Source of the DNA: Pseudidiomarina andamanensis
GTDB taxonomy: Bacteria > Pseudomonadota > Gammaproteobacteria > Enterobacterales > Alteromonadaceae
Length of the DNA stretch: 32,000 nt
Reading direction: 5' to 3'
Assembly (NCBI RefSeq): GCF_009734345.1
Contig: NZ_CP032551.1
Coordinates: 750,001-782,000, forward strand
Part shown: piece by piece, positions 5,386-32,000 of the stretch
How the letters are laid out: every line of letters begins with the position of its first letter
Numbering within the stretch: the stretch's first letter is position 1
Program-made: the position numbers and the translations under genes
Notes under the pieces: model-generated
Database searches by the model: none
Seen by the model: the letters and a program-made list of their open reading frames with translations, nothing else
Told to the model about the DNA's origin: nothing

Positions 5386-6102
5386 TTAAGCCATTCGCTT
5401 AGACAACGCCACCTGCCATGATTGCGGTAAGCGCGACATTAATTTTAAAAACCAACCAAACACAGTTGGAAAGGTAATATCCGTGGTTCCTTTACGAATT
5501 CCCTTACGGATTCGATCAGAGGCAAATTCAACTGATACTCGCATCGGCATCTCAAAATCATTCGCATCAGTCATTGGGGTTTCGACAAAGCCAGGAGATA
5601 CCGTAAGAACTTGAATACCCTTCGGTTCGAGGTCAACTTGCAGACTTCGTGCAATGTATTGAATGGCTGCTTTGGAACCACCGTAGGCTTCGGCACGAGT
5701 AAACGGCAGCAAGCGCGCCGTACTGCCAACAAGCACAAGCTTGCTACCAGCTTTCATATTCGGTAGTAACGCCTCAACACAGCGCATCATGCCAAACACG
5801 TTCACTTCAAATACGCGCTCAAACATCGCAGCTTCGAAGCGGTCAATATCAACATATTCACACACTCCGGCCGATAGAATCACCACGTCAACGTCGGTAT
5901 AAGCGGCAAGCGCTTGCTGGGTTTGATCGGCATCACTAACGTCTAAACGCTGTGCAGCAATATTGTCAGGGAAGCGTTGTTCTAACTCAGCGAGTACATC
6001 GGTATTACGTCCGCAGGCTATAACCGTGTGGCCTTCGCTCGCATAATCCATCGCAACTTGTTTGCCGATACCTGAGGTGGCGCCTGTAATCAGAATGTTC
6101 AT
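5386..6102 (-). CDS. Short-chain dehydrogenase/reductase (SDR)
   Basis: TGxxxGxG motif (ILITGATSGIGK) and catalytic YGGSK (YxxxK). Confidence 0.9.
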   Translation of the reverse strand: MNILITGATSGIGKQVAMDYASEGHTVIACGRNTDVLAELEQRFPDNIAAQRLDVSDADQTQQALAAYTDVDVVILSAGVCEYVDIDRFEAAMFERVFEVNVFGMMRCVEALLPNMKAGSKLVLVGSTARLLPFTRAEAYGGSKAAIQYIARSLQVDLEPKGIQVLTVSPGFVETPMTDANDFEMPMRVSVEFASDRIRKGIRKGTTDITFPTVFGWFLKLMSRLPQSWQVALSKRMA

Positions 6103-11377: not shown

Positions 11378-13765
11378 TTACTCCCTTAGGGTTGCCCCGA
11401 ATTCAGATGTTAGCATCTCCACAACCGTCTTCACGGCTGCATTGATTTCATTGTCTTCAAGAGTGCGCTCAGGATGCTGCAATGTCAACGACAGTGCTAA
11501 ACTGCGATGACCTTCAGCTACCCCAGCCCCTTGATATACATCGAATAAGTTTAGGTCAACTAAATGATTTACGCCAATATTTTCAATTGCTGCGAAAATT
11601 TCTCCAGCGGCAACCGAGTCGTTCACCACAATCGCGAGATCACGACGAATTGATGGATACTTCGAAATTGGCTGCGCCTGCGGAACAGTTCGCTTAGCAA
11701 TCGCATTGAGTTCAAGTTCAAACACGAAGGTACGGCCATTTAGGCCAAGCTTCTTCTCGAATTGGGGATGCACTGCGCCCACGTACCCGACACGTTTCTC
11801 GCCACGGAAAATTGCAGCTGATTGGCCTGGGTGCAAGGCTGGGTGTTGATCCGCAACAAAACGGAACTCATGCGCGGCGCCAGTTAATGCAAGCAATGCC
11901 TCAACATCACCTTTGATATCGTAAAAATCAACCGCACGCTCACCATCGCTCCAGTGTTCCGGATAAGCTTTACCTGCACGAACACCCGCAATCATCGGCT
12001 GCTGTACCACGCCATTCTCAGCTTTCTCATCAGGCAAGAATCGCAAACCGGTTTCACAGAATGCTAAGCTTTGTTGTTGACGTTTTTGGTTGTGTGCCAC
12101 TGCACCAATCAAACCCGGCCATAAGCTGACGCGCATGGAAGACATCTCAACCGAAATTGGGAACGGCAATGTTAACGCAGCCGTTTCATCAAACAACATG
12201 GCTTGATGTTTCGGGTCAACAAAGCTGTAGGTAATCGCTTCTTGATACCCACGATCAATTAACGTGCGCTTCATGCCACCTGCGCTAAGCTGCGCTTCTT
12301 GGCGTGGAATCATACGCAGTTGCGCTGCTGGTGCCGCCGCTTGAATACGGTGATACCCATAAATACGAGCAACTTCTTCAATCAAATCTTCTTCAATGCT
12401 GATATCGAAACGGAAAGTCGGTACTGTCACATTCCAACCAGAATCTGTGGTGATCACCACAAATCCTAGACGTTTCAGAATTTCAGTCACTTCTTCAGTG
12501 GCAATACGAATACCAAGCACGCGCTCTAAACGCTCAGCACGCAAGGTGACATGCGCAGCTTCTGGCAAATGCTCAACACTGACGGCCTCAACAATTGGGC
12601 CAGCTTCGCCGCCACAAATCTCGAGTAATAATGCTGTCGCACGTTCCATGGCGGTACGTTGCAATTCAGGGTCAACACCACGCTCGTAACGGTGTGATGC
12701 GTCAGTATGCAAGCCGAAGCGGCGGGCACGGCCAGCAATCGCATCAGGGCTGAAGAAAGCACTCTCTAGGAACACGTTTTTCGTGGTTTCAGTCACACCA
12801 CTACCTTCGCCACCGAAAATACCAGCCATGGCGAGCGGTTTTTGTTCATCAGCAATCACGAGTACGTCGTTTTGTAGGGTGACTTCGTTACCATCAAGTA
12901 ACGTCAGTTTTTCTTCTGCCTTCGCCATACGCACATGCACAGCGCCTTCTAACTTGTCGTTATCAAAGGCATGCATAGGGTGACCGAGTTCTAACAATAC
13001 GTAGTTGGTAATATCAACAACTGGGTCAATGCTACGAATACCACTACGACGCAAGCGTTCTTGCAACCACAACGGTGAGCTCGCGCTGACGTTCACGTTA
13101 CGAACCACACGGCCTAAATAACGCGGACACGCCGCAGGTGCATCAAGCACTACCGCACGCTCTTCGTCATGAGCTGCAGGCACAGACTTAATTTCTGGCT
13201 CAGTCACTTCCAAACGGTTTAATACGCCCACTTCACGCGCGATACCACGCAAACCTAAGCAATCAGCACGGTTTGGGGTTAAATCAACGTCCAAAACCAC
13301 ATCATTGAGGTCTAAATACTCACGATAATCCATGCCTACCGGCGCATCTAACGGCAATTCAATAATGCCGTCGTGATCATCACTTAAACCTAACTCTGAG
13401 CTTGAACAAAGCATACCGTGTGACGGTTGGCCACGCAGTTTCGCTTTTTTAATTTTGAAGTCAACTGGCAATACCGCACCAACAGTTGCCACAGCAACTT
13501 TCAGGCCTAGGCGGCAGTTTGGCGCGCCACAGACAATTGTCGCCAACTCATCAGCGCCAACATTCACTTCGGTCACTTGTAACTTATCGGCGTCTGGGTG
13601 TTGCCAGCATTTCACAACTTCACCAACAACCACACCAGAAAACACTTCAGCCACTGGCTCAATGCCGTCCACTTCGAGACCGGCCATGCTTAATTGTTCA
13701 GATAACGCCACGCTATCTAGCGCAGGATTCACCCAGGTACGTAACCACTGTTCACTAAATTTCAT
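11378..13765 (-). CDS. pheT: Phenylalanine--tRNA ligase beta subunit
   Basis: 795 aa with [14 protein letters not shown] at the N-terminus. Synteny pheS-pheT-ihfA. Confidence 0.97.
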
Positions 13766-26104: not shown

Positions 26105-27613
26105 CTAAAACAAGCTTAATTGGTTGTCATTTGAAGTCGACTTTGTGGTGCGTTTTTTGCGTGACGCAAACTGCCGGCGGCGCTCTTTATTGCGGTCGGC
26201 GGGCTGTAAGTTATAGCGCGTACGAAGTTCCGCAATAGCGGCTTTTATTTGGCGATGGGATTGCTCGAAATCGACGAGTGGTTCTGGGTAAAAGAAGTCA
26301 TCATTCCACCCAGCTTGTTGCTTGAGCTTATTAGGCATCTGCCATGGCTCAAATAACCATGCGCCCTCCACGTGCTGCAATTCTGGTATCCAGCGCTTCA
26401 CAAACACACCATCTGGATCTAACCGCTGCGCCTGCATCACTGGGTTATAAATTCGAAGAATGGAATTACTCGCCTGCCCGCTTTGCATTTGTACTTGCGG
26501 ATAGTGAATGCCAGGTTCGTAATCCACAAACAACTTCGCAAGCCATTTGGCGACAGGTTGCCAAGGTAAACCCAATGAATACGTTGCTGCCGATACCAAC
26601 ATGGCCCGCATACGGAAGTTAATCCAGCCGTGGTGATGCAAATAGCGCATACAAGCGTCAACCATTGGCCAACCGGTACGTCCGTGTTTCCACGCTTCAA
26701 ACTTTACGGCGTCAAATGCGGGTTCTAGCTGCGCCATTTGCGGAACTAACGGTCGGTTTTCCATATAGCAATGGCTTTCAAAGCGCTGAGTGAAATAACA
26801 GTGCCACCACAATCGCTTGGCAAAATCGTTCAAACTTCGTCGCCAGTAACTGTTTACCGTGCGTTCTTGGATGGCATCAGTTTGCTGGACTAATTCTTTC
26901 AAGCTAATACAGCCGTACGCCAAGTAAGGGCTGAGACGAGAGCACGCAGTTGGTGCCGTCAGCGGTGAGCTGATTGAACCATGATAGCGTTCGCTGCGGC
27001 GGGTTAAAAAGCTCGTTAAAGTCGCCAAGGCTTGCGTACGCCCGCCGCTTTGACGCTTTCGGCATGGATATTCGTCTTGCGTGACGTCTACAGCTAAGTT
27101 AATTGATGGCTCATCGAAAGTGACGAAATCGATTTCACTAGGCAATTCAGCCTGTGGCTGCGACATATACGCAAACCAATGCTCGTGAAACGAACCTTCA
27201 CGTCGCTTCACCGGCCGCACAACACCAAACTGAGCATATTCATGCCATACAACGCCGTTTGAGTGGCACCAGCGTTTTACTGCCTTATCACGTTCAAACG
27301 TCCACGAGTTGCCCTGCTCTTCGTGGCTATGCAGCGTCAACGTCCCAAACCGCTGTTTTAATCTTGTCAGCGTTTCGACCACGTTTCCCTGTGTTATCCA
27401 CAAGGCACCGCCAAGGCGCTGAAGCTGCTCTTGCAAATCAATCAGCGATTCGCGCACAAACTGCCATTGCCGATTACTAGTATCTGGTAATTGCCAGTAG
27501 CCCGGTTCAACTACATAAACGCACAGCACAGGCCCTGTCTTGCTTGCTGCAGCCAAAGCTTGGTGATCAACTGTACGTAAATCGCGTTTAAACCAGACAA
27601 CTTGGAGATTCAT
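26105..27613 (-). CDS. Cryptochrome/photolyase family protein (divergent, basic C-terminal tail)
   Basis: VVWFKRDLRTVDH N-terminus and TGWPMVDACMRYL FAD-domain motif. ATG at 27613 is preferred over GTG at 27622. Confidence 0.88.
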   Translation of the reverse strand: MNLQVVWFKRDLRTVDHQALAAASKTGPVLCVYVVEPGYWQLPDTSNRQWQFVRESLIDLQEQLQRLGGALWITQGNVVETLTRLKQRFGTLTLHSHEEQGNSWTFERDKAVKRWCHSNGVVWHEYAQFGVVRPVKRREGSFHEHWFAYMSQPQAELPSEIDFVTFDEPSINLAVDVTQDEYPCRKRQSGGRTQALATLTSFLTRRSERYHGSISSPLTAPTACSRLSPYLAYGCISLKELVQQTDAIQERTVNSYWRRSLNDFAKRLWWHCYFTQRFESHCYMENRPLVPQMAQLEPAFDAVKFEAWKHGRTGWPMVDACMRYLHHHGWINFRMRAMLVSAATYSLGLPWQPVAKWLAKLFVDYEPGIHYPQVQMQSGQASNSILRIYNPVMQAQRLDPDGVFVKRWIPELQHVEGAWLFEPWQMPNKLKQQAGWNDDFFYPEPLVDFEQSHRQIKAAIAELRTRYNLQPADRNKERRRQFASRKKRTTKSTSNDNQLSLF

Positions 27614-27617
27614 GAAA

Positions 27618-27645
27618 AGCACTTAGAGTGAAATACCTAAGTGCT
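27618..27645 (-). promoter_or_regulatory. Perfect 9-bp hairpin abutting the cryptochrome start codon
   Basis: AGCACTTAG (27618-27626) / CTAAGTGCT (27637-27645) with a 10-nt loop. On the minus strand it is followed by TTTTC and then ATG. Confidence 0.4.
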
Positions 27646-27900
27646 AAAACGTGTGCCAAAGATGAGGAGATCATTCGCGACCGTTATTACGGACAACAAA
27701 ACTTAAGCTTTTTCGTTTATATAGTCGTTTCGATAGCGACGCGATTAGCTTTTGAACTAGGTGTTGGTTATCATCTTTAAATAATCTGAAGCTTCGGTGC
27801 GTCGGTGCTAAGGATTTCTCTAAGGTATTGCAGTCAGATCCTAATTTTTAAGATTGTAGTCTGCTATGTGCCAGGAGCGGACGTTGACGCTCGCATTGGC

Positions 27901-27979
27901 GGCTGGTTTGGAGCGCGGCGGAAAACCAGTCCGGTGGAAGCCCGTAAGGGCCGGAACGAACTTGAATGACTGGTTATGC
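27901..27979 (-). repeat. attC-like element, possibly degenerate terminal attC
   Basis: On the minus strand GCATAAC starts immediately after the TGA stop at 27980. The central segment TTTGGAGCGCGGCGGAAAA is nearly identical to that of the 28786-28857 site. No convincing GTTRRRY partner was found. Confidence 0.45.
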
Positions 27980-28768
27980 TCAAGCACTTGGACCATGCTG
28001 TTTTGGCCCATGCCAGTCGAATGCTTCCAATGTCTGTTGCAGAATATTTTGAAGCCTCTCCATTGATTCCGGTGACACATCAACCTCCCCATAATGACCG
28101 TCAGCCATTGTTGAGGCATATTTGGAGCCATTAAGGGAGTTGAGAATAAGCACACCTCCGTTGGGGGCGCTTATCATATTGTTTTCAACTGGCTTCAGAT
28201 CCAGAGGCTTCGGGTTCCTTCCAGCACCAAGGCCACGCGATCTATCCTCCAAGTGCTGAGCGCTGTTCCTTACTCCTCGAAGATCGGGAAATGCTTCGCC
28301 TACCTGGCCATGCAGCTCTGCAACGATTTCCGGCACACCGTCTTCTCTTGATAAAACCCCAAGGAACTTTTCAAATGAATCAATAGCGTAGAGAAAGGCT
28401 CGAGCGTATATGAAAGGTAAATTGTGCTCGAATTCCCGTGGTTGAAATCCATTCGACCATTTTTCTCTTTTGAACCGGACTTCGGTTTTAAAATTGATCT
28501 CATCCCACTGCTCGTGCCCCAGAAACCCACCGTACTCTTGCTCTATTTCCCGCCTAATCTCACTCCTTCGTTGGGCATCTCGTTCCCAGTTTTCACGGTC
28601 AGCGACTGACGGGCAGACAGATCTGGCTTCAGTAAACAAGTTCAGTGCAAAATTTGCCTCAAAATACTGTGATTTGAGTGATTGCAGCAGATTTCCGATT
28701 TTCCACGACCAATCCCGATCCTCACTTTCGAGCCATGTTCCAGGGGTTACGATTTCAAACACATACAT
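27980..28768 (-). CDS. Hypothetical protein with RNxxxH (HEPN-like) motif; single-gene cassette
   Basis: RNSAQH is encoded at 28253-28270, in a helical context. The start ATG at 28768 is preceded by AGGAG. The track start at 28789 lies inside the attC core. Confidence 0.7.
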   Translation of the reverse strand: MYVFEIVTPGTWLESEDRDWSWKIGNLLQSLKSQYFEANFALNLFTEARSVCPSVADRENWERDAQRRSEIRREIEQEYGGFLGHEQWDEINFKTEVRFKREKWSNGFQPREFEHNLPFIYARAFLYAIDSFEKFLGVLSREDGVPEIVAELHGQVGEAFPDLRGVRNSAQHLEDRSRGLGAGRNPKPLDLKPVENNMISAPNGGVLILNSLNGSKYASTMADGHYGEVDVSPESMERLQNILQQTLEAFDWHGPKQHGPSA

Positions 28769-28785
28769 TGCATATACTCCTAAGA

Positions 28786-28857
28786 GCATAACGCCGCGCT
28801 CTGCGGCAAATTTGGAGCGCAGCGGAAAATTTGTCCGACAGCAGCGCCTTGTTATGC
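28786..28857 (-). repeat. attC recombination site (72 bp)
   Basis: Minus strand reads GCATAAC-AAG-GCGCTGCTGTCGGAC-AAATTT-loop-AAATTT-GCCGCAGAGCGC-GGC-GTTATGC. The R boxes are perfect inverted repeats. Three single-base bulges all lie on the 5' arm. It starts 16 nt after the DprA-like stop. Confidence 0.75.
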
Positions 28858-28873
28858 GAATTTTGCGTCCGTG

Positions 28874-29848
28874 CTAAATCATGCTTTGCTGGACCGGACT
28901 TGGCGCCATGACGACAGCACTTGAACAAAGAATTTTTGGAAGTGCTGTTGCACTGCTTTCTTCACTAAAAACCACAATGCTAGGCTCTTCTGAAATAAGT
29001 TGCCTATTTAAATCAAACATTGGGTTGTTTAAGTGCTGCTTTTCATCGTAGATAACTGCCCTAGGTATTGAATAATCTTTGGCGTAACCCATTGCTAATC
29101 TGGAACCGCTATCATTTCCTATATCGTTCTTGGCGTAACTAGCAGACAATACGATTGAATTGCTAAAAAGGGCCTGTAATCTATCTCGCTCTTGATACCT
29201 GCCACTTAGCTGCATTTTGGATTTTGGCGCGGTAAGATATTCAGAAATTAATAATCCACCACTTGCGACAATATCCTTGGCCAAATCTTTGTTCTTGGCT
29301 GGCATAATATCGTTTAGCGGGCTTGGGAGGATTGCAATTGTCTTTCCCTTGGAATCTAAAGCTTGCAGATGAGCAATGGAGTCACAACCCAACGCCAGAC
29401 CACTAACTATTACAGCGCCATTGGCCACCAAGTTAGCAACAAGTTTCCGTTCTATCGCTTCTATCTCTTGGGTGGGATTCAGTAATCCTATTACTGCAAT
29501 ATTGTTACTTTCAGTGGATAGCAGCGAAAGATCGCCTTTATAAAATAGAAAAATCGGGCGTTCACTATTTTTCACGGAGCCGCGATGTGCGGGGAAATCA
29601 TCATCTCCAATAGCGACAACGCCATCAACTGCACCCACTGACTCGGAAAGTATTCTTCGCAACATCGACTTTTTCTTGTTGAAGTCCTCAATGGTGATTG
29701 TGCCCTCTGACTTAGAGGATTCGTTTAATAGCTTAACGATAGCTTCTTCGGGCTTTGGGGTTGAAAGATTCTTAACAATCCAAGCCCGTCCAATACCTTT
29801 ATAAATTCTGGCAGCCATGACATTGATGGCGTTCTCGCTACATTTCAT
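28874..29848 (-). CDS. DprA/Smf-like (SLOG superfamily) Rossmann-fold protein
   Basis: DprA-type motifs VSGLALGCDSIAH, GGLLISEY and RYQERDRLQALFS. It is not in the usual housekeeping dprA neighbourhood. Confidence 0.8.
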   Translation of the reverse strand: MKCSENAINVMAARIYKGIGRAWIVKNLSTPKPEEAIVKLLNESSKSEGTITIEDFNKKKSMLRRILSESVGAVDGVVAIGDDDFPAHRGSVKNSERPIFLFYKGDLSLLSTESNNIAVIGLLNPTQEIEAIERKLVANLVANGAVIVSGLALGCDSIAHLQALDSKGKTIAILPSPLNDIMPAKNKDLAKDIVASGGLLISEYLTAPKSKMQLSGRYQERDRLQALFSNSIVLSASYAKNDIGNDSGSRLAMGYAKDYSIPRAVIYDEKQHLNNPMFDLNRQLISEEPSIVVFSEESSATALPKILCSSAVVMAPSPVQQSMI

Positions 29849-29864
29849 ATCAGTTTCCCATTCC

Positions 29865-30488
29865 TCAGAATCTTTTTGGCGTGTTTCCGATCGCGTAGAA
29901 CACTACCGACCTAGCCCCGTTATCAAACAAAGCTTGCACCATATCTTCATCAATGTTCACCGTTTTTGTGTATATGTCATCGACTAGTAAGATGTCGCGC
30001 CCCCTGATATGCGCTGAGAAATTGCAGGTATCTGAAGCGATGCCCGGATAGGGCATTCGACCATCGTTCTCGAATCCATCAACAGGGTTTCGCAGGTGGG
30101 TAGTTCGGGTGTTCGTATGCCGGATAATAAAATCCGATCCATCTGCAAATCCGGGGGTTGAACGAGCATATGCCCCGACCGTTGCCTTAAACAATAACTG
30201 GTCTGGACGATAAGAAGCTTCTGCCTTGGCTCTTGGGACGACGCAAACCGTCAAGGTGCTTGCCTCGACCTGCTTGATAATTTCCGGGAAATCTATACCG
30301 AGAACCGTATTCAGATCGTTGATCGCGTATCTGATATTTTGTTGGCTCCAATTGTGATGGGGATCATTCTTGAGTTTGTACAGGAAATCCGGATTTCCTG
30401 GTTGACCCGCTCCATGAAAGTCGGCATGAAAATAGCCTGGCACATTTCGGTTCAAGAACTGGTTTGCTTCCATTATGAATTTGTTCAT
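29865..30488 (-). CDS. Phosphoribosyltransferase-fold protein (ComF-like)
   Basis: PRPP-loop-like RDILLVDDIYTKT near the C-terminus. Start overlaps the HAD stop (ATGA). Confidence 0.75.
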   Translation of the reverse strand: MNKFIMEANQFLNRNVPGYFHADFHGAGQPGNPDFLYKLKNDPHHNWSQQNIRYAINDLNTVLGIDFPEIIKQVEASTLTVCVVPRAKAEASYRPDQLLFKATVGAYARSTPGFADGSDFIIRHTNTRTTHLRNPVDGFENDGRMPYPGIASDTCNFSAHIRGRDILLVDDIYTKTVNIDEDMVQALFDNGARSVVFYAIGNTPKRF

Positions 30489-31084
30489 CTTGTAATCCTG
30501 CGTACATCTATTATCTGATCAATTCCAATGCCGCAAGCAATAGCTGACTCAATGGCCTTTTCATCATTCTCAAACACCAACATGGACATGCTTCCTTTCG
30601 GAAGTTCAGCCATCAATTGCACGTACTTATCTCTTTGAGATTCAGCGTCTCTATAGATCTTCCGTGTGAACTTCTCGATAAGTCCGTGATGGTTGAGTAA
30701 CATTTCCGCTCGACATCTGCGACTATTTGTGGCCAAAACAACTTCTTTCTCTTGGACGCGTGCAACTATTTCAATTAGTCGCGGGATGGCCTTTGTTTCT
30801 GAAAGATATTTATGATATGAGCGCTCTTTAAGTAAGGCAATCTCTTCAATTTGTTTGTCAGTGATGCCCGGAATAATTTCTTCAAGTACTTCTCGCGTTA
30901 TTCTGGTGCCCGGAGTGAAATCAATTTCTATTTGTGTAGATAGAACGAACATCACAGCATCTTTATACGCCAAAAAGTTGGCGTGATCGGAATCCACCAA
31001 GGTTCCGTCCAAATCAAATACGATAACTTCCGCTCGCTCAGCTTTGGCCAGCCATTCTTCACGTGCTTGATTTCCGTCAACCAT
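30485..31084 (-). CDS. HAD-superfamily hydrolase (phosphatase-like)
   Basis: Motif I VFDLDGTLVDS, motif II VLATNS, and a cap domain between them. ATG at 31084 has GAGG at good spacing. The track start at 31102 lies inside the attC core GTTATGC. Confidence 0.85.
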   Translation of the reverse strand: MVDGNQAREEWLAKAERAEVIVFDLDGTLVDSDHANFLAYKDAVMFVLSTQIEIDFTPGTRITREVLEEIIPGITDKQIEEIALLKERSYHKYLSETKAIPRLIEIVARVQEKEVVLATNSRRCRAEMLLNHHGLIEKFTRKIYRDAESQRDKYVQLMAELPKGSMSMLVFENDEKAIESAIACGIGIDQIIDVRRITR

Positions 31085-31098
31085 GCTCCGCCTCATTC

Positions 31099-31198
31099 GC
31101 ATAACGCCGTTGTAACCGGCAAAAAATTGTTGGCTAAAATGTGAAGCGAAGCGTAACAGCCAACAAGTTTTTTGTCCGCGTTGACAACTTTGTTAGGC
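31099..31198 (-). repeat. attC recombination site (100 bp)
   Basis: On the minus strand GCCTAAC (a perfect RYYYAAC) starts 1 nt after the TAG stop. The far end reads GTTATGC. The L arms GTTGTCAACGCGGAC / GCCGGTTACAAC pair with three bulges on the 5' arm, and an extended 15-bp stem carries an about 20-nt loop. Confidence 0.75.
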
Positions 31199-31199
31199 T

Positions 31200-32000
31200 C
31201 TACATTTCGTATAAGCTCAAACCCATTGAAGCACCTATAGCGTACCAAACTCTCTGCCAGAGAACACGCTCAAGGTCATAACCAATGAATGATGTTTCCT
31301 CATTACCATGCCTAAGTAATTTCCCATTGGACAAGTATTTGAAATTAAAGGTTCCCAGTTGCTTATCACTTAGCTGTTCAGGAAGGACAGCACGAAGAGG
31401 TTTAAGATAAACAGGATCATCAGCAACTAAAATAAACTCATCAAATAAGTGCGAAAAACTTTCCATATGGTTACCTAACTCGAGTGTATACCATTCTTCA
31501 GAAACGGTATTTATCCTAATTTCACCTTTTTCATAATCCTTCGTTGAACCGTCAAGATGCTTTATCTCATGCCCATCTTCTGGTGGGTGGAAGACAAACG
31601 CAGTGATAAATGATTTTTCATGAAGCCACTCTATGGCATGAGGGATAAATTCATCAATTTCAACAGGCTTTAATAATCGATTTGGATGAAGCTCTTTAAA
31701 GAAACGTAAGGCCTTAGCTGTTTCTCTATAAAGAAAAGGATAGTCGATGTACATTACACGGTACTTAGCTGGTGCTCTTTGCATTCGTTCTTTGTATATT
31801 TCTCTAACTTCAGCAACGCATGATTTAGGGTTTCGGTTTATCTCTCGCCCTGTGAACCTTATAACGGCGTATCCAGCTCTTGAAAGGTAACGCTGCCGTA
31901 TGGCGTCTTTTTCTAACTGCTCTTTCGTTGAATGATAGTCATGCCCATCTAACTCAACTATTAGTCGAGCATCTTTCAATATAAAATCAACACGGAATCG
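31200..32000 (-). CDS. DUF559 (Vsr/restriction-endonuclease-like) domain fused to an unknown about 170-aa C-terminal domain; 5' end outside window
   Basis: The frame is open to the right edge (RFRVDFILKDARLIVELDGHDYH...GYAVIRF). The track start at 31979 (TTG) is internal to the domain. Confidence 0.7.
   Translation of the reverse strand, partial: RFRVDFILKDARLIVELDGHDYHSTKEQLEKDAIRQRYLSRAGYAVIRFTGREINRNPKSCVAEVREIYKERMQRAPAKYRVMYIDYPFLYRETAKALRFFKELHPNRLLKPVEIDEFIPHAIEWLHEKSFITAFVFHPPEDGHEIKHLDGSTKDYEKGEIRINTVSEEWYTLELGNHMESFSHLFDEFILVADDPVYLKPLRAVLPEQLSDKQLGTFNFKYLSNGKLLRHGNEETSFIGYDLERVLWQRVWYAIGASMGLSLYEM

Follow-up and report, generated by a model that had tools for sequence, protein, structure and literature searches.

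A probable integrase-less gene cassette array beside a conserved non-coding leader in a Pseudidiomarina chromosome

The right end of the window, by which we mean the whole stretch of 32,000 nt that was analysed, is very probably a genuine integron-type gene array of three cassettes on a Pseudidiomarina chromosome (Table 1). We assign it with high confidence to the integrase-less arrays of CALIN type, here on an unusual, integrase-unlinked platform; IntegronFinder would class it as a CALIN. By definition, a CALIN has two or more attC sites on the same strand and lacks an intI within 4 kb, a distance of 10 kb being checked as well (PMC4889954). Both features were found here. The initial annotation had proposed an integron-type array or, as a second form, an integrase-less attC cluster, and the second form was borne out. 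Its observations that the genes are co-oriented and that the window lacks intI held as well: all five ORFs of the array lie on the minus strand, and no IntI-like ORF or homologue is present there. The cassettes, described as visibly AT-rich, do have a lower GC content (0.41-0.46 over 28.5-32 kb vs about 0.47-0.50 in the flank), although the drop is only modest. The view past the right end of the window was provided by 20.6 kb of genome GCA_054779515.1 (Pseudidiomarina sp., locus L001), in which the three cassettes were counted. There, the gene of cassette 1 extends to what would be position 32150 of the window numbering, and G|TTAGGC, near 32178-32180, marks the start of the cassette (full gene and junction in L001 8905-9885). 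The full protein matches Pfam DUF559 (E 8.6e-14) and MTES_1575 (E 1.8e-12).

Table 1. Features of the cassette array, listed from the proximal to the distal end (window coordinates).
Feature	Position	Strand	Description
Cassette 1 (DUF559 nuclease-like gene): DUF559/MTES_1575 endonuclease-like	31200..32000, leaves window	-	full protein 316 aa
attC of cassette 1	31099..31198	-	100 nt, R'' GCCTAAC, R' GTTATGC, four bulges
Cassette 2 (HAD + PRTase + DprA-like trio, read as split-toxin ShosTA): HAD-superfamily hydrolase, first gene	30485..31084	-	199 aa, Pfam HAD families E about 1e-8
Cassette 2: ShosT-like phosphoribosyltransferase	29865..30488	-	207 aa, PADLOC ShosT PDLC03962 E 2.8e-7, weak match
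Cassette 2: ShosA-like DprA-family antitoxin	28874..29848	-	324 aa, PADLOC ShosA PDLC03961 E 7.8e-49
attC of cassette 2	28786..28857	-	72 nt, R'' GCATAAC, R' GTTATGC, three bulges
Cassette 3 (262-aa protein, widespread): function not assigned	27980..28768	-	262 aa, helical, invariant R-N-x3-H motif
Decayed terminal attC of cassette 3	27882..27979	-	R'' GCATAAC (27973-27979), R' GTCAACG not GTTAACG
Conserved post-array sequence TCCGCTCCTGGCACA	27867..27881	-	follows last attC in several independent arrays

Three imperfect palindromes follow minus-strand stop codons at distances of 0, 16 and 1 nt, at the positions given in the initial annotation (27980, 28874 and 31200). In plus-strand reading, one GTTATGC (27973-27979) directly touches the stop codon 27980-27982, a second GTTATGC (28851-28857) has 16 nt between it and the stop codon 28874-28876, and a GTTAGGC (31192-31198) has 1 nt between it and the stop codon 31200-31202. 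In minus-strand reading, the 31.1-kb site is GCCTAAC-AAA-GTTGT(C)AAC(G)CGG(A)CAAAAAA(C)TTGTTGGC...GGC-GTTATGC and the 28.8-kb site is GCATAAC-AAG-GCGCT(G)CTG(T)CGG(A)CAAATTT...GGC-GTTATGC. In both, an R'' of the form RYYYAAC and an R' one base off GTTRRRY form the base of a palindrome 3' of an ORF, with a 3-nt spacer and with single-base bulges on the 5' arm only (coding-sense strand). Boxes, spacers and 5'-arm bulges agree with the attC layout that had been described for these two sites; the bulges number four in the 31.1-kb site and three in the 28.8-kb site. The extrahelical bases of the top strand are G/C, T/G and A, not the canonical C and A. They are confined to the R''/L'' arm, and the central spacer is unpaired. 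Such a spacer and extrahelical bases on the R''/L'' arm mark the bottom strand as recombinogenic. DNA folding of the two sites gave -19.9 to -23.7 kcal/mol and z -2.8 to -4.0 vs shuffles (-19.9 and -21.3 kcal/mol for the 28.8-kb site; -21.6 and -23.7 kcal/mol for the 31.1-kb site, z down to -3.98). Judged by sequence, both sites keep every structural requirement for excision.

As a stand-in for the attc_4 attC model of IntegronFinder, a covariance model (R1) was trained on 13 attC sites taken from metagenomic arrays and not from this genome. It covers a single attC family: of 25 attC sites, 8 were out of register in a MAFFT alignment and only the 13 regular ones were kept, so that R1 misses the attC subfamily of the P. 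donghaiensis locus L004. The R1 alignment was 90% paired with compensatory changes in 16 of 21 pairs, a result reached by none of 500 shuffles. R1 matched the 28.8-kb site with 82.6 bits (E 2.3e-20) and the 31.1-kb site with 42.7 bits (E 2.3e-9), each over the full length and on the minus strand only. The attC-model search suggested earlier, approximated in this way, was therefore passed by these two sites, and by the 27.9-kb site only in part. No further R1 match below E 0.4 was found in the 32-kb window and the 20.6 kb of L001, which together cover 52 kb of the about 2.5-Mb genome. A strict shape scanner recovered both full sites and one coding false positive in the window, overlooked genuine attC sites in L004 and had a background of about 0.7 matches per 100 kb over the 1.5 Mb of other loci scanned. 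When loosened, it gave too much noise (123 background matches in 1.35 Mb), and chain-walking with the covariance model was used in place of both scanners.

Cassettes 1 and 2 meet between 31105 (G) and 31104, cassettes 2 and 3 between 28792 (G) and 28791. For all three cassettes, R'' is the exact reverse complement (7/7) of the GTTxxxx at the cassette's own 5' end; the pairs are GTTAGGC/GCCTAAC, which is the discriminating one, and then twice GTTATGC/GCATAAC. Where R'' is complementary to the 5'-boundary TTRRRY, the circularised cassette restores a paired R box. The rule also holds along the chains of 20 of the 29 loci that share the leader described below, with many different 7-mers.

The origin of the array lies 178 bp past the window, where a discrete non-coding leader of ~350 bp ends in G|TT (...ACAAATG|TT). 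Looking beyond position 32000, as had been advised, thus revealed an attI-type junction and no intI within 8.9 kb. The leader (L001 8555-8907) is 88% identical to a sequence in P. donghaiensis (L004 15470-15812), and the similarity ends exactly after GTT. It was also found on 27 metagenome contigs, which together with P. donghaiensis and this genome gives 29 loci. Among these, 25 different sequences, the first cassettes, follow the leader GTT. Since the same leader is followed by so many different cassettes, it behaves as an attI-type site, with its G|TT end as the candidate insertion point. The left boundary of the leader is sharp as well, and the leader occurs in single, tandem and inverted/divergent copies. 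Other identities of the leader were rejected: structured RNA (fold z -0.95, no Rfam match), coding sequence (no ORF in six frames of the consensus) and attC (no R1 match). A crude scan of the leaders of L001 and L004 found no sigma-70 consensus promoter, which leaves Pc-like expression unsupported.

The locus is variable between species. The array sits in a 6.4-kb accessory island (L001 7020-13431). In P. tainanensis, Usp directly adjoins the photolyase gene and the whole island is therefore absent. In P. donghaiensis the locus lies elsewhere. The comparison among relatives that had been called for thus confirmed cassette gain and loss, in these two species and in the metagenome leader loci.

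No IntI homologue was detected by tblastn (E <= 0.1) in the window, in L001 or in the leader loci, which reach as far as 12 kb upstream; the queries were IntI1, VchIntIA and one IntI protein each from L016 and L068. Near the array, IntI is absent within 8.9 kb upstream and 28 kb downstream. An intI beside attI and array, as in a complete integron, was found neither in the window nor in L001 nor in the 27 leader loci. The sequences thus directly show the attC structure with its covariation, the boundary rule, a hypervariable junction, presence and absence between species, re-use of one cassette in another array and the lack of a nearby intI, whereas the recombinase's identity and location, its present-day activity and the mode of cassette expression are inferred. 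An integron integrase would act in trans, encoded at another place in the genome or brought in by an incoming element. It would recombine the folded bottom strand of the attC of a circular cassette with the double-stranded leader site at G|TT. Recombination at this point would let new cassettes enter beside the leader and push older ones distally.

Two versions of this history have to be weighed. In a split integron, a distant functional IntI, possibly with its own attI and array, might serve the leader and array in trans, so that the array would be active now, which we regard as a serious possibility somewhat short of an even chance. That natural populations carry 25 different first cassettes at a single junction implies that an integrase acts frequently, two attC sites are structurally intact, and about half of CALINs lie in IntI-encoding genomes (PMC4889954). 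Against it stands the lack of intI in all 29 leader loci, several of which reach 8-12 kb upstream. Alternatively, the genome might be devoid of IntI and the array a fossil or passively exchanged, its cassettes having arrived in an ancestor or through the transient presence of an integrase on a plasmid; this could well be so, although we would not call it probable. The diversity would then come from horizontal exchange of entire leader-array units by homologous recombination via the conserved leader and terminal flank, an explanation that we likewise hold to be plausible without being the expected one. The array is short, with three cassettes, its terminal attC is decayed (GTT mutated to GTC), the flanks conserved on both sides could support homologous recombination, and the other half of CALINs is found in genomes without IntI (PMC4889954). 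However, the two proximal attC sites show no decay, and many unrelated cassettes are joined exactly at G|TT, so that site-specific insertion must have recurred.

A complete integron with intI just past the right end of the window was the first reading of the initial annotation, and the cassette orientation indeed puts the array origin right of position 32000. It is now highly improbable, as L001 covers 10 kb past the HAD gene of the window without a tyrosine recombinase, and the leader is followed by a 75-aa ORF, a 140-aa ORF and cupin, Usp, SulP, CSD and thioredoxin genes. That the palindromes are intrinsic terminators or REP-type repeats which follow genes by chance would suit their imperfect form and their place just after stop codons, but is scarcely credible, since they have no T-tracts, carry bulges on one arm only, show AAC and GTT core triplets at the stem base and an R'' that matches the upstream cassette boundary, have stems that covary with sites from arrays elsewhere, and, with no other R1 match in 52 kb of genome, are not a dispersed REP element.

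The sharp left boundary of the leader and its tandem and inverted copies are not accounted for by a simple attI remnant. A more speculative and rather unlikely reading is that the ~350-bp leader is a self-contained mobile attI platform, served by an integrase never linked to it. This platform would be a non-coding unit whose left border is a GTCCGCT...AGCGGAC hairpin and whose right border is G|TTAACG together with that hairpin again, a structure we propose only tentatively. Its spread across Idiomarinaceae chromosomal sites as single, tandem and divergent copies is conceivable rather than likely, and the same caution applies to the idea that each copy gathers a separate mini-array, one to four cassettes long and often made up of defence genes. 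The cassettes of sister arrays include Shedu, PD-T7-3, PDC-S11/S21 and SIR2. The leader was not found on plasmids, phages or viral contigs, and a Pfam search found no recombinase between the divergent leader pairs in L086 and L098. A genome-wide REP element was rejected for the left-end hairpin, GTCCGCT occurring at chance level in the window. If leaders are mobile platforms, the integron would be a distributed system in which a remote or visiting enzyme serves numerous cheap docking sites, and one class of CALINs would have a concrete origin.

The array shares with the CALINs described in 2016 (PMC4889954) attC sites on one strand, co-oriented cassettes of unrelated functions and no intI within 4-10 kb. 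Like most of them it is small and has no intI pseudogene nearby (83% of CALINs have fewer than six sites, and 95% lack a nearby intI pseudogene; PMC4889954). Integrase-less attC clusters are common and are usually described without an identifiable attI, whereas this array can be tied to a defined site: it begins at a conserved, discrete leader whose G|TT end appears to have received cassettes again and again across 29 independent loci. With marine gammaproteobacterial sedentary chromosomal integrons, such as the Vibrio cholerae superintegron (10.1101/2024.07.02.601686), it has in common the chromosomal location, attC sites of R''-spacer-L'' type with extrahelical bases, and cassettes mostly of unassigned function with toxin-antitoxin or defence content. 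It differs from them by the lack of an adjacent intI, by having only three cassettes, by heterogeneous, dissimilar attC sites (72 and 100 nt) and by a locus position that is not conserved, being absent from the sister species P. tainanensis and elsewhere in P. donghaiensis. As in attG insertions, SALINs and small CALINs (Loot et al., 10.1101/2022.09.11.507474), cassettes lie outside the canonical intI-attI platform, and the insertion point has the 5'-GWT-3' core of attG sites, here G|TT. Insertion at attG has been proposed as an origin of small CALINs (10.1101/2022.09.11.507474). Insertions at attG are spread across very many positions, whereas here one site within a conserved element appears to serve repeatedly, as a dedicated attI would. 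At the leader, an integrase in none of 29 loci contrasts with 25 different first cassettes. If an unlinked integrase serves these sites, cassette capture would need no canonical intI-attI unit, and small CALINs could be active docking stations and not debris. A search of literature and supplements on Idiomarina or Pseudidiomarina integrons found none.

Cassette 2 is read as a ShosTA-like phage-defence module with a predicted split toxin. The ShosA-like protein also matches Pfam DNA_processg_A (E 9e-37) and the ShosA structure PDB 9vzo (E 2.3e-14), and its gene adjoins that of the PRTase-type ShosT, for which the match is weak and a Pfam search gave none. In a sequence search, the HAD and PRTase proteins did not match solved ShosT structures. 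The stop of the HAD gene overlaps the PRTase start (ATGA), with the gene start as called in GCA_054779515.1. The ShosT of E. coli is a fusion in which a HAD-type pyrophosphatase domain precedes the PRTase at the N-terminus (PMC11961720). The order of a DprA-like ShosA after a PRTase-type ShosT, and a HAD-type hydrolase activity tied to the toxin, agree with ShosTA (PMC11961720, PMC12961424). Whereas a single 424-aa ShosT of E. coli contains both the hydrolase and the PRTase domain, two overlapping ORFs (199 and 207 aa) are present here and the system is packed as one 2.3-kb cassette. A split-toxin variant carried as one cassette would be an addition to known ShosTA and, together with the Shedu, PD-T7-3 and SIR2 cassettes of sister arrays, would extend the view of integrons as defence-gene banks past the large Vibrio-type integrons.

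The 262-aa protein of cassette 3 has 476 homologues (65-86% identity) in many proteobacterial genera and no match in Pfam, NCBIfam or PADLOC. Its structure model (pLDDT 73.6) had no match in a fold search against the PDB. Its helical character and the invariant R-N-x3-H motif, read from alignment A6, suggest that it may be HEPN-like. A comparison made for cassette 3 placed it also in a different array, the unrelated 12-gene array L112, with an identical 5' boundary (G|TTATGCTC), an intact attC (5596-5667) and different neighbours; by sequence, this cassette has been re-used in another array. In Chromobacterium the gene occurs as a lone gene.

At the distal end of our array, the third palindrome, claimed as an attC-type element, retains R'' and an intact inner stem-loop and is decayed, not working. 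The outer 5' arm is disrupted, the element does not fold into a single hairpin (z -0.96 and -0.77), and only model positions 21-54 of R1 match, at 27900-27933 (24.5 bits, E 3e-4). With its altered R', it lacks the R''/R' core-site pair despite its R''. Because the distal attC is decayed, the 262-aa cassette is probably fixed in this genome. Beyond it, a GTTAACG+TCCGCTCYTGGCACA motif closes the arrays in L087, L090, L094, L096, L105 and L106, and the post-array sequence of our array probably represents what originally flanked the insertion site on the right.

The three elements at the right end of the window lie 0, 16 and 1 nt past the minus-strand stop codons at 27980, 28874 and 31200, as initially annotated, and all five ORFs are indeed co-oriented on the minus strand. 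Of the three, the elements at 31.1 kb and 28.8 kb show the canonical attC layout. Their minus-strand reading gives GCCTAAC and GCATAAC, respectively, as R'' boxes, and each has an unpaired 3-nt spacer, a long stem, a loop and an R' box GTTATGC. The bulges are single-base and restricted to the 5' arm, but they number four in the 31.1-kb and three in the 28.8-kb element, not three throughout as previously stated. Folding of both elements as ssDNA gave -19.9 to -23.7 kcal/mol (z -2.8 to -4.0, dinucleotide shuffles). A strict shape scanner with a background of ~0.7 hits/100 kb (1.5 Mb of other DNA) returned these two sites from the window, plus one false positive in coding sequence. The AT-richness ascribed to the array is visible as a lower GC content, but the drop is modest, from about 0.48 to 0.41-0.46.

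The GTTxxxx at the 5' boundary of each cassette is the exact reverse complement of its own R'' (GTTAGGC/GCCTAAC for cassette 1; GTTATGC/GCATAAC for cassettes 2 and 3), and therefore a circularised cassette would regain a perfectly paired R box. Such restored pairing is the signature of G|TT recombination. The array has the structure that integron-integrase recombination at an attI-type site generates. The array starts at the G|TT end of a conserved non-coding unit, termed leader, which lies just outside the window in L001, a locus of the same genome reaching ~10 kb further (window position = 41085 minus L001 position).

Coordinates of array, leader and related features
Feature	Position	Strand	Basis or score
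Cassette 1 (DUF559 gene)	window about 32179 to 31105	-	boundary logic
Cassette 2 (HAD, PRTase and DprA-like genes)	window 31104 to 28792	-	boundary logic
Cassette 3 (262-aa protein gene)	window 28791 to 27888	-	boundary logic
R1 match	window 28786-28857	-	82.6 bits, E 2e-20
R1 match	window 31099-31198	-	42.7 bits, E 2e-9
R1 match, model positions 21-54 only	window 27900-27933	-	24.5 bits
Leader	L001 8555-8907 (window-equivalent 32178-32530, just past window)		
Hairpin-half repeats	L001 8018-8040 and 8566-8585		flank 75-aa CxxC-motif ORF
Halomonadaceae attC clusters	L036 6699-8998; L078, L050, L035 and L022 at 11782-13487		near photolyase gene

The attC-model check proposed in the initial annotation was approximated with R1, a covariance model built from 13 regular attC sites of metagenomic arrays, none of them from this genome. 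In the R1 alignment, pairing was present in 90% of cells and double changes in 16 of 21 pairs. The covariation score was 0.585 vs 0.154 in shuffles (reached by 0 of 500), and slid-control alignments dropped to 25-42% pairing. The three outermost R-box pairs were frequently unpaired, as expected because the neighbouring cassette supplies those bases. With filters off, R1 yielded two full-length significant matches and one partial match in the 32-kb window, and nothing else below E 0.4. R1 detected no additional site in L001, which means that the ORFs on the upstream side of the leader do not belong to cassettes of this attC type. Leader loci, 185 kb in all, contained 52 sites.

No single-hairpin fold was obtained for the third, 27.9-kb element (z about -0.9, dinucleotide shuffles). 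The 262-aa cassette is also carried, at 85% identity, by L112, an unrelated co-oriented array of 12 genes. This copy has the same 5' boundary as in the window, G|TTATGCTC, and an intact attC (GCATAAC-CAG-TGCGT(C)AAC(G)GGA...GTTAGGC). The window's element keeps the inner stem-loop and the first 11 nt past the stop; ~35 unrelated nt stand in place of the outer 5' arm, leaving the 3' arm partnerless. The third element is a decayed attC, so that the 262-aa cassette is probably immobile in this array. Its protein (gene 27980-28768) has 476 homologues of fixed length with 65-86% identity, in Limnobacter, Chromobacterium, Acinetobacter, Rhodoferax, Aromatoleum and Paraburkholderia and also in Desulfuromonadales; L110, L111 and L112 are among the loci of the family. 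The Chromobacterium homologue is a single gene flanked by core genes, which fits a widely travelled cassette. The family is without annotation, and a fold search of its model gave no match. The predicted structure is helical, and an R-N-x3-H motif, invariant in the family, is reminiscent of HEPN nucleases.

The product of cassette 1 is a nuclease-like protein of 316 aa (DUF559/MTES_1575). In cassette 2, PADLOC assigned the DprA-like protein to ShosA (E 8e-49), in line with its match to the solved ShosA structure 9vzo, and the 207-aa PRTase to ShosT (E 3e-7). ShosT of E. coli consists of an N-terminal HAD-type pyrophosphatase domain fused to a C-terminal PRTase (PMC11961720). Here, in contrast, HAD and PRTase are two overlapping ORFs: the stop of the 199-aa HAD hydrolase ORF overlaps the PRTase start in an ATGA (both ORFs together, window 29865-31084), and the arrangement was identical in an independent sequencing run (L002). 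Given the E. coli fusion, cassette 2 most likely carries a ShosTA system whose toxin is split. The cargo of sister arrays comprises Shedu, PD-T7-3, PDC-S11/S21, SIR2, HigB, an SMR pump, GNATs and MliC.

In L001, ...ACAAATGTTAGGC sits 28 nt upstream of the DUF559 gene start. Searching metagenomes with the terminal 31 nt of the leader yielded 27 contigs. Together with L001 and the P. donghaiensis locus L004 these make 29 leader loci, and the sequence after ...ACAAATGTT takes 25 different forms among them, a diversity that requires repeated insertion at one G|TT. From the junction, cassette chains keep to the rule that R'' is reverse-complementary to the cassette's own 5' R' over a variety of 7-mers, and the attC bulges lie on the 5' arm. 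The arrays contain 1-4 cassettes, and many terminate in G|TTAACG followed by TCCGCTCCTGGCACA. The window array terminates in the same motif, but with GTCAACG. It seems to be the right half that the insertion site originally had, with a T now mutated to C in the crossover triplet.

The leader is odd in several respects. It forms a discrete unit whose two ends are both well marked. Its left limit is sharp, ~351 bp upstream of the junction (~220 bp in a short form), and its left end is a GTCCGCT-N10-AGCGGAC hairpin. The last ~220 nt are almost invariant in the 29 loci, and no ORF, consensus promoter, Rfam match or stable RNA fold was found in them. A terminator-like hairpin (L001 8670-8692) divides this part from a more variable 5' part, which the short form (L087, L093, L101, L106) lacks. 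The leader was not found in plasmid, phage and viral collections. Tandem, head-to-tail copies occur in L085 and L096, where one array ends in G|TTAAYG and the hairpin and the next leader begins immediately. Divergent copies (L086 4970-5321(-)/7995-8337(+); L098 4299-4640(-)/6213-6564(+)) stand back-to-back, their arrays pointing outwards both ways, with a block of genes other than recombinases in the middle. No recombinase was found between tandem or divergent copies. The leader's left hairpin has its right half repeated at the 3' end of the 140-aa ORF (ATGAGCGAGGAGCGGACCT vs ATGAGCGAACAGCGGACCT), as if the 75-aa ORF segment had been inserted at the hairpin.

The reported absence of intI from the window was confirmed by tblastn with IntI1, VchIntIA and two IntI proteins from other loci. 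These queries had no match in the window or L001 and readily picked up IntI in L016 and L068. Beyond position 32000, where a search had been advised, L001 shows the leader junction instead of intI, and no recombinase gene is among its genes upstream of the junction. IntI was found in none of the 29 leader loci, including those with 8-12 kb upstream. Within the loci covered, the integrase is not linked to the leader. The initial observation holds, its alternative reading as an integrase-less attC cluster is supported, and the array is a CALIN by the IntegronFinder definition. The integrase may be encoded elsewhere in the genome or may be absent, or visiting, and the two possibilities are about evenly split; of known CALINs, half are in genomes with IntI elsewhere and half are not (PMC4889954). 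Small CALINs are known to arise by insertion at secondary attG sites (10.1101/2022.09.11.507474), but the repeated use of one site in a conserved element makes the leader G|TT look more like a dedicated attI. While the array is ordinary in kind, its unusual part is this conserved insertion platform unlinked to an integrase.

A comparison of the locus among strains had been suggested initially; here, related species were compared. The array-flanking photolyase protein is 92% identical to that of P. donghaiensis and 88% to that of P. tainanensis, which assigns the genome to this genus. In P. tainanensis the photolyase gene directly adjoins the Usp gene, and L001 7020-13431 (6.4 kb, including the entire array) is missing. 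In L001, the order upstream of the leader is 75-aa ORF, 140-aa ORF, then cupin, Usp, SulP, cold-shock and thioredoxin genes. The cupin gene and both ORFs (L001 7017-8462) belong to the missing island and have no attC sites by R1; the island thus comprises more than the cassette array, and its borders showed no repeats. P. donghaiensis shares only about L001 8562-8910 of the island (~350 bp, non-coding), located 4 kb downstream of the photolyase gene. The leader alignment stops exactly at GTT, and a different first cassette follows, with homogeneous attC sites of roughly 120 nt.

Integron features recur next to the photolyase-family gene (window 26105-27622) in lineages that are not related to each other. 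In an Atopomonas genome and a Burkholderiales MAG, its neighbour is an IntI gene (L016 2175-3116; L068 8887-9849). In 1.45 Mb of photolyase loci, R1 matches were confined to five Halomonadaceae loci, where they form clusters that lack IntI and lie ≤3 kb from the gene. Such recurrence seems much more frequent than a random gene would show by chance. In Pseudidiomarina, arrays occupy either side of the photolyase gene in two species.
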